From the NCBI GenBank assembly GCA_024137785.1, contig JAHRHZ010000283.1, positions 42,709,020 through 42,773,019 of the forward strand: a DNA stretch of 64,000 nucleotides, read 5' to 3'. Source of the DNA: Ginglymostoma cirratum (taxonomy: Eukaryota). The notes under the pieces were generated by a model. That model saw only the letters and a list, made by a program, of their open reading frames with translations. It made no database searches and had not been told where the DNA came from. Position numbers and translations under genes: made by a program. Of this stretch, positions 2,338-40,276 are shown piece by piece (positions within the stretch are counted from its first letter, which is position 1; each line of letters starts with the position of its first letter).

Positions 2338-3721
2338 GTATGTTCCTTGTAATTTTCAAACCATTTGATTGTATTTCCTGCATTGTTACTTAGAAGATTT
2401 AGACCTCGAGTTTTGCTTCTGGGTTAGGATCACAGAACCGAGATATTCCTCATACTGCAAATCTAACCTCAGAAGAAGTGACATGGAGTCAAACCGAGTG
2501 GCCATGGAATGAGTGTGGAGCATGCCAGTTACTGGGGTGGGTTTTGTGGAAGGACTGCTTGTGCACTGGCACTTTGTGGTTAATTTTGTTTTAAAAGATG
2601 TAAAATGAAAACAGCCTACCAGTCCCCTCTCTCATTCTATGCCTCATCCATGCCAACCTATACTACTCCTTTCCCTTACCTATTCCATACCAATTCATGT
2701 AGTGCCTACTGTGAGAAGATCTCAGGAGCTATTCTGACATAAAGTGCTTATTAATGAAACATTATTTTTAAGGAAACTGTCATTGACTTACAAAATAGTA
2801 TTCAGTATATCAAAATCCCTTGAACTAATCTCCTACAATTGCAAACATTCACTTAGTACGCCATTCCTTCCTTTGTGAAAGCGAGCACTTCTATCCTGTA
2901 ACCACCTGAAGTTGTTAATCAAGATATCCATTCAACAAACACCACACTGTTTGGTTGATCAGTCATGCAGCACAAATCCTGTAATGATACCCTGCCAGCT
3001 GACATCAATACATTTTTCCAAACTCAAGTTTTATTTTTAAACTTGAAGCTCAACAGAGCTAAAGTTTATGATGACTTAACTCGCATGGCAGTTTCAATGA
3101 GTTTCTGCACTTTTTTTGTGCATTCAGGTCTACGCTTAACTACTGCCTCCAGAAGCGAGGCTGTGCAATTTTAGGTACCCCTTCATTCATTCTACCCCAA
3201 AAAAGCCTAATACCCTAAGCAGCATAGAGGCCAGTTTCAGGTCAAAGGCCTCAGGTTTGGGTCTAGCCCAGCATTTTTGCAAGAGCCTTTCTGACTATGA
3301 AAATTCACATTAGAGATGTACCTCAGATTCCACAGGTGATTTTCAAGGAAGCTTTCTCTTTCTATGGAAGTCATTGTGATTTTCAAGCTTGTTGTAACAT
3401 GTAAATAAAATTTCTATGACTATATATCTTACATATATAGTTACATTAAATTCATTTTACTCTGGATCAAATTGAAATGGGCACCAGACTGCACCTATTA
3501 CCTTTGTTGATGTACTCTCCCCAGCCTGGCAAACCAGGAGGTCAGATGACTTTGAATCTCTTTTTAACTTCTCACACATTACAATGGCACCTTTTGTGGA
3601 TAACAGGTGTTGGAGCCAAGTGATTATCATATACAATTTTTGTCATGCTACTAAATTGTATTTTGCTGAAATAACTGAATTTAACCTCTTAATGATGTTC
3701 AACATTGACATTTTTTATTAG

Positions 3722-5600: not shown

Positions 5601-6001
5601 GAATTTCCAAGGTGAACAATTGTACTTCATTACTGTGTGCCACCTGTAGACCATGGAGAATGCACCAGTTAATGATGACAATTGTTAACTGCCACATTTA
5701 TGTAAATTTTAAACTGGGCGGTTGACTAGTCAAGGCATTGCCCTAAGACATGAACCAGAGAATGGCTATCACCTATTTTATTGAGTTGAAGCAGGTACAA
5801 TATGTCTATATATTCTTTTTCAGCAACTTGTGTTTAAGTACCTTGATTCTAGAGCCCACTTCAAATGCTAAACAATTGTTCTGTACCATAGGTTATTTTT
5901 CAAGTAGGAACAAGTTGATTCTCAAATGTTTTCTTGGAAAGTGTTCAGTTTTTGCAAAACTAACAACTACATTTTTGAATGTTTAAACTCTCCTCCTATA
6001 G

Positions 6002-6086
6002 ATGGGTGCCTGCTTTACAAAGGTATTTGATGGATGTCCTTTGAAGATAAGTTGTGCAACATCTTGGATACACCCTGAAACAAAGG
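6002..6086 (+). CDS. MAP4K5: MAP4K5 coding exon ([31 protein letters not shown] start)
   Basis: cctatag| and |gtaatg; phase 0 to 1. Confidence 0.96.
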
Positions 6087-6197
6087 GTAATGCTATTAAG
6101 CAAAAATTGCTTTCACACTGAAGCTATTTACAAAAAAAGTTACGCAGTATTTCTTCCAATGAAATATTAACTTTGGCATTGTTTTTCTTTAAATTAG

Positions 6198-6277
6198 ACC
6201 AATATTTAATATTTGGAACTGAAGATGGCATTTATACATTAAATCTGAATGAGCTGCATGAAGCTTCAATGGAACAA
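6198..6277 (+). CDS. MAP4K5: MAP4K5 coding exon (DQYLIFGTEDGIYTLNLNELHEASMEQ)
   Basis: aattag| and |gtaagc; phase 1 to 0. Confidence 0.96.
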
Positions 6278-6462
6278 GTAAGCATAATGAACATAGATTT
6301 TATCTGGTCTTTCTTGCAATTGCAGCATTGTCAGAACTGTAACACTGAACTTTAGGATTCTGTTTTGACAAGTGGAGTAATGGCTATGCAAATCTATTGG
6401 AATAACTTTGATTTAACTTCTCAATGTTTTTAATGGATGTTAATTGAAATGTATTTTCCCAG

Positions 6463-6523
6463 CTTTTTCCCAGGCGATGTACCTGGCTGTACGTTATCAA
6501 TAATATTTTAATGTCTTTATCAG
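6463..6523 (+). CDS. MAP4K5: MAP4K5 coding exon (LFPRRCTWLYVINNILMSLS)
   Basis: ttcccag| and |gtatgt; phase 0 to 1. Confidence 0.96.
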
Positions 6524-7304
6524 GTATGTATCCATTTGGTCAAGTCTTAAGAATAATACTTGAACTTTGCTTTTGAAAATTTATTTCACTTTATTGCCGG
6601 TCAATAGGTGTAACAAGCGATATTGTAGATACACTTTAATTTATTTTCATGGGAACGCGGCAAATTGAAAATCAATTTTAATTGTTGTGATGAATTTTGA
6701 GTTTTAATCTTCCTATGTTATTATTGCAATACAATAGAATATAAAAATGATGATTAAAGCTGATGTTGCTCTGACAATAGAAGTGAAAAATAGCAGAAGA
6801 GATAATTATGCAAAAGAGAAAATTAAGACACAGCCGTATGCAGTAACTTATGAAGTAGAAATGTAAATAAAGTATGACAGTACTGAACAGTGTGTAAACA
6901 TGACTCTAAAATAAGGGTGAACTAGGGATTCAAGAAACCAAGGAGAGGGGTAACCTAGTGAAAGGAAACAGACTCTAAGAGTTTGTATAGGTACCCAATA
7001 GTCAGAGATAATACAAGTCGTATCAAAAAAATTTAGCAGCACAAAGCATCTGCTGGTTGCTTTAAAACAAGTGACATTTGCAAAATTCCTAGTTAAGATT
7101 TAGAACACACAAATCTTTGGGTGCCACTGGGGAGGTCTGACTCGCTTTGGTATTCTGGCCTCGATCCTGTACTTTTTTGTACTCTAATTTCAGTCCTGTT
7201 GTTTTGGTGGATGACTGTAAAGTAGCTCCTTATTGACTGTTTGCAGTTCTCGAGTGCCAGAAGGAATTTTATATTTTGAAATAACCTAAATTACTCAGTA
7301 GTGT

Positions 7305-7600
7305 GGATAAGTGATGGCCTACTAGTATTATCACGAGATTATTAATTCATAAACTAGATAATGTTCTGGAGACGTAGTTGTGAATCTCAACATGTTGGAA
7401 TTTGAATTCAATTTTAAAAATCTGGAATTAAGAGTACAACGATAAACATGAAACTATTATTGATTGTCAGAAAAACCCATCTGGTTCACGAATGTCCTTT
7501 TATGAAAAGCAACTACTGTCCTCACTATATATATATATATATATATACTTAAAAACTCACTGCAACATTGACTCTTAACTGCCATCTGGGTAATTGGGGA
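7305..7600 (+). mobile_element. tRNA-derived SINE, same family as 63123-63447
   Basis: Shares blocks GGAATTTGAAT...GAATTAAGA...GATTGTCAG.AAAACCCATCTGGTTCAC.AATGTCCTTT with the 63 kb copy. Confidence 0.65.
7526..7547. repeat. (TA)11 microsatellite
   Basis: Read directly. Confidence 0.95.
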
Positions 7601-8725
7601 TACTGAACTGATCTCTGGCAGAAGAGTAGTGAGGGCTAATACCATTGATATCTCAACCAGCACTTACACTCTTTACTGCTGCTCTGAACTGGATATAAAG
7701 ATTTGCTCCCTTGTGTAACTGGGGGGAAAATAATTGAACACCTGACGCTGATAGCTATCCATTGATGCCATTTGAAAAGTATGCATGTTTAAACTTGTAC
7801 AGAAACAAAATGCATCAAGAATGGTCATTCGGTTGAGATGTTGAAAATCTCTTTCTCCCTTGAAACCATACTTCCAAGATGAATTACATTGTTTAAACAC
7901 CAGAAAAAGGGATCGCTTTGAAAATAAATTACTGAATTTTGCAACATATACTGGACTCTTAATGTAAATCATTCACTGTTAAAATTTTACTTTCTGGCAC
8001 GAGTCACTGGACAGAAGTCAGAACTGTTTCTTCTACCTTTTTTTTCAAAAGCAAACCACTGCTCCTCTTAAACCCAATAATTCTGAAGTTTGTGTATTCT
8101 GTCTACTGCTTCATGTGGCGATGTTAATTGATTTTGTACATTGCAGGGATCAAATCTAGACCATCTTAATTAGTTACCATCATGAGGATTTTAAAATTGG
8201 GAATACTGACCAGCTTGCCCTTGCGGACTGCCTAAGTATCAGTCATAGAATAAGAGAGTCATGAATCAGTACTTTATTGATGTAGAACAGTGGGAAAATG
8301 TAGTTTAAATTAATTAAAATGATAAATTTATGGCATGGTTCCAATGAATATTAAACAGTTTTTTTCAGGTGCACCATATAAATATGCTTTAATGTATACA
8401 CAATGCTATTCTAAACTCAGATATCCTTTTTTGAGGTTTGTCTATTGTCGATGTTTGTATGTATTAAATAGTATAGGACGATGAAAATTTGAACTTGATA
8501 ATTTTCGAAAATAGTTTATATTGTCTTTACAATCTTATAAAATGTGCTTTGTCATTTGCACTGAAATTAGGTTTTAACTAAAATAATCGTTGAACTGTTC
8601 TTTCCTTTTGTTGTTCATAATAGACACTTGTTTAAACTCCTGAAAAATTAATCAACCCTCTTGTGTTCTCCTTTTCCCATAATGGCTTCATCTTGTGTCT
8701 AAATTGACCCGCTTACTGCGCGCAG

Positions 8726-8728
8726 AAG
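8726..8728 (+). CDS. MAP4K5: Candidate 3-nt MAP4K5 microexon (AAG; SLS-GKT becomes SLS-E-GKT)
   Basis: actgcgcgcag|AAG|gtaaac; about 100 nt AG-free pyrimidine-rich upstream zone; TGC at -9; frame-preserving in a phase-1 intron. Confidence 0.75.
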
Positions 8729-8794
8729 GTAAACACATTGTATAAACCAAAGCTGAAGATATTTAAATTATGTTTTTATCAGGATTTTTGTCAC

Positions 8795-9305
8795 TTTTAT
8801 GGATGACTTTAATCTTCATATGGATTAGGGTAGTCGGATTGGCAGAGGAAGCCATGAGGAAGAATTTGGAGTGTATTTGGAACTGTTTCCAGGAACAGTT
8901 ATGTTGTGGACCCAACCTGGGATTTGGCTATTTCAGGTCTGGTGATGTGTGTTGAGGCAGGTTAAATAAATTGTCAGAATAAACAATCTCGTAGGAAACT
9001 GACCAGAACACGGTGAAATGTAACATTTAGTTTGAGAGGGAGGAACTTGGGTTGGAAACAACTTGATGAAATTTAAATAAGGATAATAACAAAAGAGTGA
9101 GGGCAGAGATGGCTGGAGTGGACTGGGGAAGGAGTTTAGTAGCAAAGATAGTTGAGCAACAATAGCAGGCTTTTAAGAAAATAATTAATGGCTCAGAGCA
9201 AAGATAACTTCGTGAAGAAGGAGGATTCCAGGAGTGGTTAACCACCGAAGTTGAGGAGAAAATCAAATTGAAAGAAGAAAAACATACAATGTGGCAAAGA
9301 TGAGG
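8795..9305 (+). mobile_element. Decayed CR1 LINE fragment (endonuclease/tether region)
   Basis: ATGGATGACTTTAATCTTCATATGGATT resembles the GDFN.H.DW APE motif, followed by typical CR1 blocks. Confidence 0.55.
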
Positions 9306-10271
9306 AAATTTCAGAGCCCTAAGACCCTGAGGGCTCTAATGCTGTTGACGGCATGGTAAGAAGAGTTGCTGTTTGTCGGATTGGATGAGGTTGGAAATGT
9401 GAAGGAATTTAAATTAGCAAGACGGGAGTAATTGGGTATTAGTGTAGATCACCAGACAAGTGGGTATTTGATGAGCAAGAATAATTTGGAAAGTAATAGA
9501 AGAAGCAGATTTTTCGATGAGAGGCTTATGGTAAGTGGAGGATGGAGAAGATTTGAAATAGCTGAATCTGAAAACGAGATGTAATCAAGGGTTTCAGGAC
9601 AAATGTCTGATTCAGAGATGGAAACATGCAATGTTAAAGGTAGAAATAGCTGGTCTTTATGGTAGAGAGCATATAGGATTGCAAGATCTGTCCAGATTTG
9701 ATTTGGATACTGAGCAATTTGGAGTTGAGCATGGTATTGTTAATAATGAAGATGAACACCAGCTTGTATATTGTACACTTGTAGAATAGCCGTATTATAT
9801 GTATAAGTATGAGGTGTTTTTTTTGTTTTTGAATGAAAAACAAGGCCACATCGTGTATGAGTAATAGTTTACATTGAATAGAGGAACAATGTGATGTAGG
9901 AGTTCAGATATACAAGTCACTAAACGTAGTAACACAGGTTAATTGTGTAACTTTTGTTTTCTTTTATGAAAGTAAGCACTGGTGCTCACTTCTAGAATAA
10001 TAGAATTGGACAGCTGAGAAGTTAATGTTCAATTTCTTTAGGACCTTGGTCAGACCATGCCAACATATTGTGCACAGTACTGATCTCCATTCAATGAAAA
10101 GAATATGCAGGGATATGAGAAGAGCATTGGAAAATAACATTGTGACAACATTTTGCTGCTAAATTGGGTGTTACCATGACCCCACAATACAGATTCCATG
10201 TTTCCATTTCCATTTTCGTTTTGGCTGGTATTTTGGATTAAGCCTATTACTTACACTCTTCCTTCTGCACT

Positions 10272-10281
10272 NNNNNNNNNN
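10272..10281. other. Assembly gap (10 N)
   Basis: Run of N beside a C-rich tract. Confidence 0.99.
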
Positions 10282-10977
10282 CCTCCCCTTTCCCTTCCAC
10301 CTCCCACCTCCCCCGCCGTCCTTGGCTCCTATGTCCCTCTGGCATAAAGGCATTTGAAATGATGCCAGAACTGAAGATGTGCTCATTAGGAAATGGCTGA
10401 ACAAGCTAACTCTTTATTCTAGGAAAAAGAAGACCCGAGAGTAATCCGATAGAGATCTTGATAAATCCCTTCTGGTATTTGAGAGAAACCTCATTATCCA
10501 GACAGTGGTAAGAATGTGGAACATGCTACAAAGAGGATATTTGGTCAAATGCAAAACTGCATTCTTTGGGCATGGAATGTCAGTTTTTTGTGGAGTTCCT
10601 GGTGAGGGTTTCAAGGAGAGGAGGGACAGAAGAATAAAAGAATTGAATTGGAATAGCAGGCAGAAAGACTGAAGTAATAGGCTCAATTCGGAGCACCAGC
10701 CAAAATGCATATGTGAATGGATGCAAAGAATTTGGATCATGTAGCTGCAGTAAACCTTGGGAAGTTCATGTTCTCATCATAAATCAGAGATGATTTTGGA
10801 GAATTCAAAATTGAAGCTTATTTTGGGTAATACCTTGTTGGGATGAATTGGAGAATATTGATAGGCCAAATTGACTACATCCTATCAACAAACCAGTGTA
10901 AAAGTTCAGAACAGTGTGTTCTGAATAGATTTCAATTGTCCATTTTTGACTTCTTTCATATTTCTTTACAATTGCAG

Positions 10978-11092
10978 GCAAGACCTTTCAGCTTTATTCA
11001 CACAATCTGGTTGCCTTATTTGAACAGGCCAAAAAACCAGGCCTGGCATCCCATATTCAAACACATCGTTTCCCTGACAAGATAATACCCAG
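10978..11092 (+). CDS. MAP4K5: MAP4K5 coding exon (GKTFQLYSHNLVALFEQAKKPGLASHIQTHRFPDKIIP)
   Basis: attgcag| and |gtaagc; phase 1 to 2; KTFQLYSHNL and HIQTHRFPD fit MAP4K5 rather than MAP4K3. Confidence 0.96.
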
Positions 11093-11636
11093 GTAAGCAA
11101 ATACATTTGTACTGTTTGAATGTGGAACAATGTAAAATCTGTTTTCATTATTCCACATCCTCATTCCACATTTTTTTTGTGCAGTTCTCTAAGTAGCTCC
11201 AGGTAGAGCATATGATTAATTCTGGCACTGATTCATGATGTGCAAACTAATATCTGAGAACGTAAATGACAAAATCAGAAAATATGCAAAATGAAACATT
11301 TTCGGGTGTCATCCTTGGAAAAAATTACTTTCAGGTGTACAGGTCCTTTAATCAGATCTTTTGATTAAGATCTTACACTATGACAAAGATTATACCAATC
11401 AATAGCATTTTTCAAAAAGAACAGGAACGGAAGATTAAAATGGCTATAAATGTTTAGTTGGAAGATGAGGCAAAGCAATTAAAATGGTTGGTGGATGGCA
11501 TAATGAGAGGAATAGACACATTGTTGAATTCAAAGCCATATTCAAGATACCAACTTGTAGCATGAACCATAACCCACAAATGACTTCAGATAATGAATGT
11601 GAAAGAACTAAAATCTACCTTGTACGTTGTTTCTAG

Positions 11637-34858: not shown

Positions 34859-37508
34859 TTTTTTTGTTTCTATTCATTTGTGGGATGTGGGCATTGCTGG
34901 CTAGCCAGCATTTCTTGCCCATCCCTAGTTGCCCTTGAGAAGTTGGTGGTGAGCTACCTTCTTGAACTGCTGAAGTCCTCCTGTGGGTTGACCCACAATT
35001 CTATTAGGGAGGGAATTCCAGGATTTTGAACCAGTGACAATGAAGGAACGGCAATATATTTCCAAGTTGGGATGGTGAGTGGCTTGGAGGGTAATTTGGA
35101 GGTGGTGGTGTTCCCATCTGCCTGGTGTCCTTGTCCTTCTCGATGGAGGTGGTTGTGGGTTTGGAAGGTGCTGTATGAGGATCTTTGGTGAATTTTTGCA
35201 GTGCATCTTGTAGATAGTACACACTGCTGCTTCTGAGCGTTAGTGGTAGAAGGAGTGAATGCTTGTGGATGAAGTACCAATCGAGCAGGCTGCTTTGTCC
35301 TGGATGGTGTCAAGCTTCTTGAGTATTGTTGAGGCTGCACTCATCCAGGCAAGTGGGGAATATTCTATCACACTCCTGACTTGTGCCTTTTAGATGGCAG
35401 ACAGGCTTTGAGGAGTCAGAAGGTGAGTTACTCACCGCAGTATTCCTAGCTTCTGGCCTGCTTTTGTAGCCAGTGTGTTTATGTGGTGAGTCCAGTTAGT
35501 TTCTGGTCAATGATAACACCCAGCATGTTGATAGTGTCGGATTCAGTGAAGTTAACACCATTGAATGTCAAGGGACGGTGGTTAGATTGTCTCTTATTGG
35601 TGATGGTCATAGCCTGGCATTTGTGTGGTGTGAATGTCACTTGCCACTTGTCAGCTCAAGCCTGGATATTGTCCAGATCTTGCATTTGAACATAGACAGC
35701 TTCAGTACCTGAGGAGTCACAAATGGTGCTGAACATTGTGCAATCATCGGCAAACATCCCCACTTCTGACCTTTTATGATGGAGGGAAGGTCATTGATGA
35801 AGCAGCTGAAGATCGTTGGGCTTAGGACACTAACCTGCAGTGATGTCCTGGAGCTGAGATGATTTGACCACGACCATCTTCCTATGTGTCAGGAATGACT
35901 CAAACCACTGGAGAGTTTGCCCCTGATTCCCGTTGATTCCAGTTTTGCCAGGGCTCCTTGATGCCACACTTGGTCAAATGCAGCCTTGATATCAAGGTCT
36001 GTCACTCTCACCTCACCTCTGGAATTCAGCTCTTTTGTCCATGTTTGGACCAAGACTGTAATGAGATCATGAGCTGAGTGGCCCTGGCAGAACCTAAACT
36101 GGGTGTCACTGAGCAGGTTATTTCTGAGCGGGTGCTGCACTATTGATGACGCCTTCCATCACTTTACTGATGATTGAGAGGAGACTGATGGTGCGGTATT
36201 TGGCTGGGTTGGATTTGTCCTGCTTTTTGTGTCAGGACTTACTTGGGCAATTTTTCAAATTATTGGGTAGATACCAGTATTGTGACTGTATTGGAACAGC
36301 TTGGCTAGGGGAGCGGCAAGTTCCGGAGAACAAGTCTTCAATACAGTTGTTGGGGCCCGTTGCCTTTGCCGTATCTAGTGTTTCCAACCGTTTCTTGATA
36401 TCATGTGGAGTGAACTGAATTGGCTGAAGACTGGTATCTGTAATGCTGGAGACCACTGAAGGAGGCCGAGATGGATCATCCACTCGGCACTTCTGGCTGA
36501 AGATTGCTGCGAATGCCTCAGCCTTATCTTTTGCACTGACGTGTTGTGCTCTTCCATCATTGAGGATGGGAATATTTGTGGAGCCTCCTCCTCCAGTGAG
36601 TTGTTTAATTGTCCACCATCATTCATGACTGGATGTGGCATGACTGGATGTGGCAGGACTGCAGAGCTTAGATCTGATCCGTTGGCTGTGGGATTGCTTA
36701 GCTCTGTCGATCACTTGCTGCTTTCACTATTTGGTGTGCAAGTAGTCCTGTTTGGTGGCTTCACCATACCTTATCTTCAGGTATGCCTGGTTCTGCTCCT
36801 GGGATGCCCTCCTGCACTCTCCATTGAACCAGTGTTAATCCCCTGGCTTGACTGTAATGGTTGAGTAGAGGATATGCTGGGCCATGAGGTCACAGATTGT
36901 GCTGGAATACAATTCTGCTGCTGTTGATGGCCCACAGCATCTCGTGGATGCCCAGTCTTGAGTTGGTAGATCTGTGCGAAGTCTGTACACATTTTGCATG
37001 GTGATAGTGCCACACAACACGATGGAAGTTATTTCCAACGTGAAGGCTCCACCAGGACTGTGCAATGGTCACTCTCACACCATTACTGTCATGGACAGGT
37101 GCAACTGCAGCTGGCAGATTAGTAAGGATTAGTTCAAGCATGTGTTTCCTTCTTGTTGGTTCCACCACCATCTGCTGCAGATCCAGTCTAGCAGCTATGT
37201 CCTTTAGAATCCGACCAGCTCGATCAGTAGAACTGCTGCTGAGCCACTGTTGGTGGTGGACATTGAAATCCCCTACCCAGAATACATTTTGTATCCTTGC
37301 TATCCCCAGTGCTTCCTCTTATGTGTTGCTCAACAGTGAGGAGTACTGATTCATCAGCTGTGGAAGATGGTATGTGGTAATCAGCGGGAGGTTTCCTTGC
37401 CCATGCTTAACCTGAAGCCATGAGAGTTCATGGGGTCTGAAGTCAATGTTGAGGACTCCTAGAGCAACACCCTCCTGACTGGTATACCATTGTGCCACCA
37501 CCTCTGAC
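34859..37508 (-). mobile_element. CR1/L2-group LINE, 5'-truncated (APE remnant plus RT)
   Basis: Minus-strand PTRRKHMLELILTNLP (endonuclease) and QFRFCQGHSAHDLIT...LDIKAAFDQVWHQGALAKL (RT); A-rich tail at 34859-34875; many frameshifts. Confidence 0.88.

Positions 37509-39913: not shown

Positions 39914-40276
<363 letters not shown>

Follow-up and report, generated by a model that had tools for sequence, protein, structure and literature searches.

In Ginglymostoma cirratum, the gene for MAP4K5, a signalling kinase of the GCK-I group with a CNH domain, carries a three-nucleotide exon, AAG, at 8726–8728 on the + strand of the window (the whole 64-kb stretch of DNA that was analyzed), and its inclusion adds a single glutamate to the CNH domain. 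That the microexon is real is practically certain, and its placement at these three bases is nearly as sure. The explanation that best fits the evidence overall, and that we consider probable, is a cassette exon of tissue-graded inclusion, dependent mainly on core splice signals rather than on SRRM3/4, whose glutamate sits in a hairpin of the CNH domain. The original prediction had presented this exon as hidden, which it is not: passages of two articles show that the one-residue event is already in print for human (PMC8632122) and catalogued for zebrafish (PMC12626424). To these known events, the present analysis adds the letters and phase of the exon (AAG in phase 1, not GAA), its specificity to MAP4K5, and the proximity of its glutamate to the counterpart of K558 in HPK1.

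Architecture and transcripts of the site

The 3′ half of MAP4K5 occupies the + strand of the window, as laid out in the exon map, and its identity follows from best matches named MAP4K5 and from 100% identity over 59 amino acids to the bamboo shark RefSeq protein P0001. The host intron (6524–10977; 4,454 nt) is of phase 1. It is preceded by a coding exon at 6463–6523, which reads LFPRRCTWLYVINNILMSLS plus the first G of the next codon and is delimited by RNA joints at 6277–6463 and from 6523 onward, and is followed by the coding exon at 10978–11092 (GKTFQLYSHNL...), matched by RNA contig pieces at 10976–11093. The position of the microexon divides this intron into a 5′ part of 2,202 nt (6524–8725, GT..AG) and a 3′ part of 2,249 nt (8729–10977), ten bases of which (10272–10281) are N. 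By translation, inclusion yields TCA GAA GGC AAG (S-E-G-K; SLSEGKTF) and skipping yields TCA GGC AAG (S-G-K; SLSGKTF). High-copy repeats with very deep read cover are present in the same intron at 7380–7600 and 9030–9300. Elsewhere in the window, degenerate reading frames at 600–1300 and 34900–37350 are presumably retrotransposon-like, and a further protein kinase gene, with exons that match Pkinase, lies after MAP4K5 on the + strand at 40049–60991 and is probably CDKL1-like, judging from sequence and gene order.

The sequence features on which the exon had been predicted across 8624–8734, namely an AG-free zone, a pyrimidine tract, a TGC, retained CpGs, and a phase-1 intron, are all in place. 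The AG-free zone extends for 100 nt (8624–8723). Within it, a motif scan finds a candidate distant branch point, TTAAT (8648–8652), directly before the main pyrimidine tract, which is itself remote from the exon (8656–8678; −70 to −48), and a candidate near branch point, TTGAC (8704–8708), whose A is at −19. A UGC then occupies −9 to −7 (8717–8719), shortly before the acceptor CAG (8723–8725, its AG at 8724–8725). Three CpGs at 8710–8722 make this the most CpG-dense 20-nt segment of the intron, whose observed-to-expected CpG ratio is 0.32. The donor, GTAAAC (8729–8734), read together with the exon as AAG|GTAAAC, fits the consensus from −3 to +4 but lacks G at +5. In size and sites the element thus belongs to the microexon class, with 3 nt between a canonical AG and a canonical GT. 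RNA structure predicted at 8600–8780 is no better than that of shuffled sequences (z −0.12), there is no Rfam match within 6000–11500, and a motif scan detects no RBFOX motif near the microexon in either shark or teleost. Candidate short motifs of QKI-like, PTB-like, CELF-like, and NOVA-like type are present near the site.

Transcripts confirm that a single codon is spliced in. The AAG-containing junction, on whose presence the original prediction had been staked, was looked for in RNA and found: six of the eight runs examined (out of 16 listed), from four studies and two organisms, join 6523 to 10976 and add a single A. The read aligner records the insertion in this way, as a lone A at a GT..GC joint; because 10976–10977 is the final AG of the intron, the transcript actually reads TCAG-AAG-GC, with AAG inserted. 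The evidence consists of three raw poly(A) reads with three distinct starts in run X14 and of one contig each in X1, X2, X6, X8, and X9, these contigs being 2.2–3.1 kb long and passing through the junction. Runs matching the stretch are not recorded as RNA; the spliced joints in their contigs nonetheless show that transcripts were sequenced. The other two runs are uninformative on inclusion, since X15 gave no reads and X3 no exon joints. No skip junction appears among the joints listed for the six informative runs, which are of unlabelled tissue and in which contigs lose rare forms; X14 was sampled at about 24%.

The AAG seen in RNA almost certainly comes from 8726–8728, given the uniqueness and conservation of that site; no read joins AAG to its own flanking introns. 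AGAAGGT occurs once in the intron (ten bases of which are N) and nine times in the 64-kb window, making this the only AG-AAG-GT available to the intron. The heptamer by itself is unremarkable, being present in 40% of 2,000 resamplings of the intron under a first-order Markov model. Nor is an AG-free zone of at least 100 nt rare on its own, as it precedes 15 of the 4,167 AGs in the window. What is unusual is a zone of this length before a 3-nt site. The + strand of the window has 50 sites of the form YAG-NNN-GTR; the zone before the microexon measures 100 nt and the next longest among them only 35. Sites of this pattern with an AG-free zone of at least 100 nt arose in 0.2% of the 2,000 resamplings, and those with a zone of at least 40 nt plus a TGC in 4.4%, with the zone and TGC thresholds chosen after the site was seen.

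Conservation, annotation, and origin

The original prediction also held that the exon is conserved across jawed vertebrates, and this is upheld by isoform pairs ranging from sharks to a gecko, by a corresponding site in a teleost intron, and by the zebrafish event. Among 205 proteins compared, 38 read S-E-G, 128 S-G, 3 S-A-G, and 1 another form, while the motif is missing from 35. Of 19 isoform pairs hand-picked by length, 13 differ solely by the glutamate; they represent eight species, namely white shark, whale shark, gar, paddlefish, lungfish, gecko, and two Danio species. For both white shark and whale shark, RefSeq holds the glutamate and the glutamate-less form.

The expectation that the exon had been missed by annotation is only partly right: the closest RefSeq protein, P0001, already includes the glutamate, whereas S-G models outnumber S-E-G models in the comparison above. 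UniRef models P0133, P0162, and P0190, from elephant shark, gar, and tuatara, have S-A-G at the glutamate site, which likely results from forcing three bases onto a shifted acceptor. Other isoform differences of one or two residues occur near window positions 2338–3721, in the linker before the CNH domain (P0142/P0139, P0180/P0183, and P0002/P0129, from zebrafish, a lizard, and sawfish), and these likely come from tandem splice sites.

At the DNA level, conservation is read from one orthologous intron, that of L020, a teleost contig from a metagenome in which the following exon matches teleost protein P0040 without a difference. Situated 252 nt before that exon, L020 carries cag|AAG|gtaatc with the exon at 409–411, so that acceptor and microexon are identical to those of the shark and the donor is GTAATC. 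An AG-free zone of 96 nt precedes it, and the L020 intron has a 12-mer identical to window 8666–8677, which is part of the distant pyrimidine tract of the shark. A shared run of 12 was reached in only 1 of 500 resamplings, and the best of 14 control acceptors attained 10. The AG-free zone of L020 lacks a TGC, and its site lacks the CpG cluster. The retention of CpGs in a CpG-poor intron, which had been offered as a mark of the site, is thus genuine in the shark but not kept in the teleost.

The human event has been described in the same gene, at the same place, and with the same isoform pair as in the shark. According to passages of PMC8632122, MAP4K5 V569E and 569del yield the pair SLSEGKT and SLSGKT, the former being the inclusion form that the original prediction had given for human, and GAA and deleted forms were noted in transcripts of human, chimpanzee, mouse, and zebrafish; human intron 23-24 measures 2,001 nt by that article. 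The two accounts differ in the letters of the exon: in shark and teleost it is a phase-1 AAG, whereas the human exon was sought as GAA, its location was stated as remaining to be mapped, and a 1-bp exon was left open (passages of PMC8632122). The word “shark” is not mentioned in the searched passages of PMC8632122, and a search that excluded VastDB, GENCODE, and subscription journals found no later mapping of the human exon. In zebrafish, the parts of PMC12626424 available list a map4k5 event with a VastDB identifier, DreEX0044744, of 3 nt, class MIC_Neural, and no human event orthologue (NO_EV_ORTH). Its downstream intron measures 259 nt by the zebrafish coordinates, near the 252 nt of L020, and no one-residue indel other than the MAP4K5 glutamate separates the isoform pairs that were compared in Danio rerio; on these two grounds DreEX0044744 is very likely orthologous to the shark exon. 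The NO_EV_ORTH call is at odds with the RNA evidence from human and likely reflects a mapping gap.

The exon is likely specific to MAP4K5, and the glutamate-less form likely ancestral, judging from comparison with paralogous and distant sequences. Two paralogues in G000, C59 and C92, which by sequence features are MAP4K3-like and MAP4K2/1-like, respectively, have an intron at the same phase-1 position without YAG-AAG-GT, and the invertebrate-type homologue L016 likewise has this phase-1 intron. In an alignment of distant relatives (92 rows from 147 representatives, three of them printed blank and some being read-through models), 78 rows have a gap at the glutamate column and 1 reads S-E-G, a MAP4K5 sequence. 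The microexon would then have arisen in the MAP4K5 lineage, in a phase-1 intron that was already there, prior to the divergence of cartilaginous from bony fishes.

Three further features of these introns may be recorded. The C92 intron (L010 ~5630–5640, − strand) contains TAG-GTA-GTAATC after a 40-nt AG-free, pyrimidine-rich zone, inclusion of which would give S-G-R-K; it is probably a chance occurrence, as this class of site is found in 18% of resamplings of the window's intron. The C59 intron (L006–L007) contains AAG-AAG-GTAAGT, with a perfect donor and a purine-rich upstream region, unconvincing as a microexon. In L016 (6101–6500), the exon after the phase-1 intron itself adds one turn residue (S-G-N-R), indicating that the hairpin tolerates one more residue.

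Probable tissue-graded inclusion and its control

Inclusion of the zebrafish exon differs widely among tissues. For DreEX0044744, PSI is 81 in neural tissue, 55 in muscle, 45 in testis, 43 in exocrine pancreas, 35 in immune samples, 17 in endocrine pancreas, and 0 in liver, with a neural dPSI of +62; in development, the value is about 5 in eggs and climbs to about 80 in the course of somitogenesis (PMC12626424, in the parts available). In human, the glutamate form predominates over the shorter one in muscle, adipose, fibroblasts, and A549 cells, and SF3B1 inhibitors raise the skip-to-include ratio from 0.32 to 4.06 (passages of PMC8632122). The neural regulation that had been foreseen stands for zebrafish, where the exon is tissue-regulated and neural-enriched; in human, the non-neural samples described mostly include it. 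Such graded inclusion is likely set mainly by core splice signals rather than by SRRM3/4. In the mechanism proposed, the long AG-free zone and distant pyrimidine tract would lead the spliceosome to the first CAG, the microexon would itself supply the exonic side of a consensus donor (AAG|GT), and inclusion would depend on branch-point recognition sensitive to SF3B1, as has been shown in human. This role of AAG in the donor would also explain why the glutamate codon is GAA wherever it has been seen.

A competing account, possible but doubtful, is that the exon is effectively constitutive in this shark and alternative only in some other lineages, most glutamate-less shark models being annotation misses. 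All six informative runs, from four studies, show inclusion only, with contigs of kilobase length spanning the junction, and P0001 has the glutamate. This uniformity is offset by the loss of minor forms from contigs, by the presence of both forms in RefSeq for white shark and whale shark, and by a human skip-to-include ratio of about 0.3 (passages of PMC8632122), all of which count against constitutive use.

The original prediction had instead assigned the exon, through its UGC, to the neural microexons controlled by SRRM3/4. In its classic form, with the UGC at −9 bound and inclusion switched on in neurons, at least in sharks, this is unlikely. The resemblance is nevertheless considerable. 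SRRM3/4 microexons are described as having a long region between branch point and AG and a distant pyrimidine tract (10.1101/2024.09.17.613571, in part), an architecture present in both shark (100 nt) and teleost (96 nt), and the shark UGC lies downstream of both candidate branch points and ahead of the AG; the exon further shares with this class, as described in the sources available, a length within 3–27 nt, an in-frame reading, deep conservation, and a position on the surface of an interaction domain. The zebrafish event is labelled MIC_Neural, with its strong neural bias and its rise during somitogenesis (PMC12626424, in part), and the teleost lacking the UGC is not decisive, since about a quarter of SRRM3/4 targets have none (10.1101/2024.09.17.613571, in part). 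Against these likenesses stands the behavior of the zebrafish orthologue, in which srrm3/4 loss produced a dPSI of −13.3 as the lowest of three comparisons, short of the cut-off of −15, so that the event was placed in the non-regulated class (PMC12626424, in part). Inclusion is moreover only 17 in endocrine pancreas, where sensitive targets are included, yet 55 in muscle (PMC12626424, in part), and human non-neural samples mostly include the exon (passages of PMC8632122). Substantial non-neuronal inclusion, the absence of the UGC in the teleost, and an srrm3/4 effect under the cut-off together set the exon apart from the SRRM3/4 class as described in these sources. Inclusion was also found in all six informative shark-type runs, of unlabelled tissue, and 4 of the 13 ordinary acceptor positions examined in MAP4K5 also have a TGC nearby. 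In searches of published supplements, Map4k5 is absent from eight supplement files of PMC7821500 and from 12 of the 13 of PMC12626420, and in 12 of the 19 files of PMC7935315 MAP4K5 appears only as an unrelated 5′ splice-site event, the SRRM4-response file being without it. Some input from SRRM proteins through the UGC may exist in the shark, but the UGC is the part of the site that is not conserved.

A quite improbable route to the glutamate-less isoform combines acceptor choice with recursive splicing, whereby use of the second AG of CAG-AAG-GT would give a zero-length exon that is then re-spliced. The sequences of both shark and teleost allow it, as the upstream exon joined to 8729 rebuilds CAG|GTAAAC. 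AAG is, though, a weaker acceptor than the upstream CAG, and the choice of AAG is already explained by the donor consensus and the glutamate codon. Recursive donors located at exon junctions or close to them are well documented in vertebrates (PMC6224609, in part); no joint 6523–8729 or 6523–8726 is present among the joints listed, poly(A) reads and contigs being poor at capturing intermediates.

Scarcely credible, finally, is a source other than a three-base exon at this site (editing of the RNA, displacement of a splice site, an exon of a single base, or some other location in the intron). Although the human exon's position and a 1-bp exon were left open (passages of PMC8632122) and the aligner does record a lone A at a GT..GC joint, such a source would need non-canonical sites or T-to-A or C-to-A changes when a fully canonical, conserved, and unique site exists, and SF3B1 inhibitors remove the insert (passages of PMC8632122). 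Each variant was considered and rejected: displacement of the donor would insert GTA and displacement of the acceptor CAG, neither of them AAG, while RNA editing and a 1-nt exon are made superfluous by the canonical site. A tissue-graded cassette exon at 8726–8728 thus remains the preferred reading.

The glutamate in the CNH hairpin

In P0001, the CNH domain (PF00780) spans residues 535–824, and the added glutamate is residue 582. An AlphaFold2 model of this protein, built on a 62-row alignment and with a pTM of 0.54 that leaves domain orientation unfixed, places E582 at the end of a strand (576–582) followed by the turn G583-K584-T585, with a local pLDDT of ~94–97. The only sequence match in the PDB is the CNH propeller of HPK1 (MAP4K1), 8EEC, which scores 244 bits to P0024 and has a gap at the glutamate. 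K584 matches HPK1 K558: when the turn lysine of an HPK1-like protein is given the number 558, the numbering reproduces I567, K574, R589, L591, A592, and K594 as they appear in passages of PMC11066036.

According to those passages, K558 was chosen on the basis of HDX protection at the kinase–CNH interface of HPK1 and was called conserved, and loss of binding was reported for deletion of the K574–K594 loop with or without a change of K558; they mention no effect of a K558 change by itself. The likeness to HPK1 comprises a seven-bladed propeller, an S-G-K turn with the conserved K558, and a blade-2 insertion that contacts the kinase domain; it ends at the glutamate, which HPK1 lacks, and in the passages of PMC11066036 kinase–CNH binding is measured for HPK1 and not for MAP4K5. 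Since the glutamate lies two residues before the lysine that matches K558, it adjoins a candidate autoinhibitory surface. There it would lengthen and acidify the β-hairpin and could mildly tune the kinase–CNH contact or the binding of partners, which is the least certain part of the mechanism. That the glutamate affects this surface is a tentative hypothesis only; in human, the two isoforms differ little in growth suppression and in partners (passages of PMC8632122). More speculative still, and to be held with considerable doubt, is the combined proposal that this one glutamate, switched by an in-frame exon of the smallest possible size and present in sharks as in humans, determines how strongly MAP4K5 is autoinhibited by displacing the hairpin lysine that faces the kinase domain, under a tissue-graded control that bypasses SRRM3/4, and that the phase-1 AAG reading is the rule by which the human exon can be located.

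As the event itself was known, the gain is modest and practical. Protein models with Val or Ala at the glutamate position are flagged as wrong, and the “no human orthologue” call for DreEX0044744 is likely false. The letters and phase of the exon, AAG in phase 1, supply what the human paper left open. Shark and teleost share a common cis-architecture, the exon probably originated in the MAP4K5 lineage before the jawed-vertebrate split, and the link between the glutamate and the kinase–CNH interface of HPK1 makes a direct biochemical test possible.
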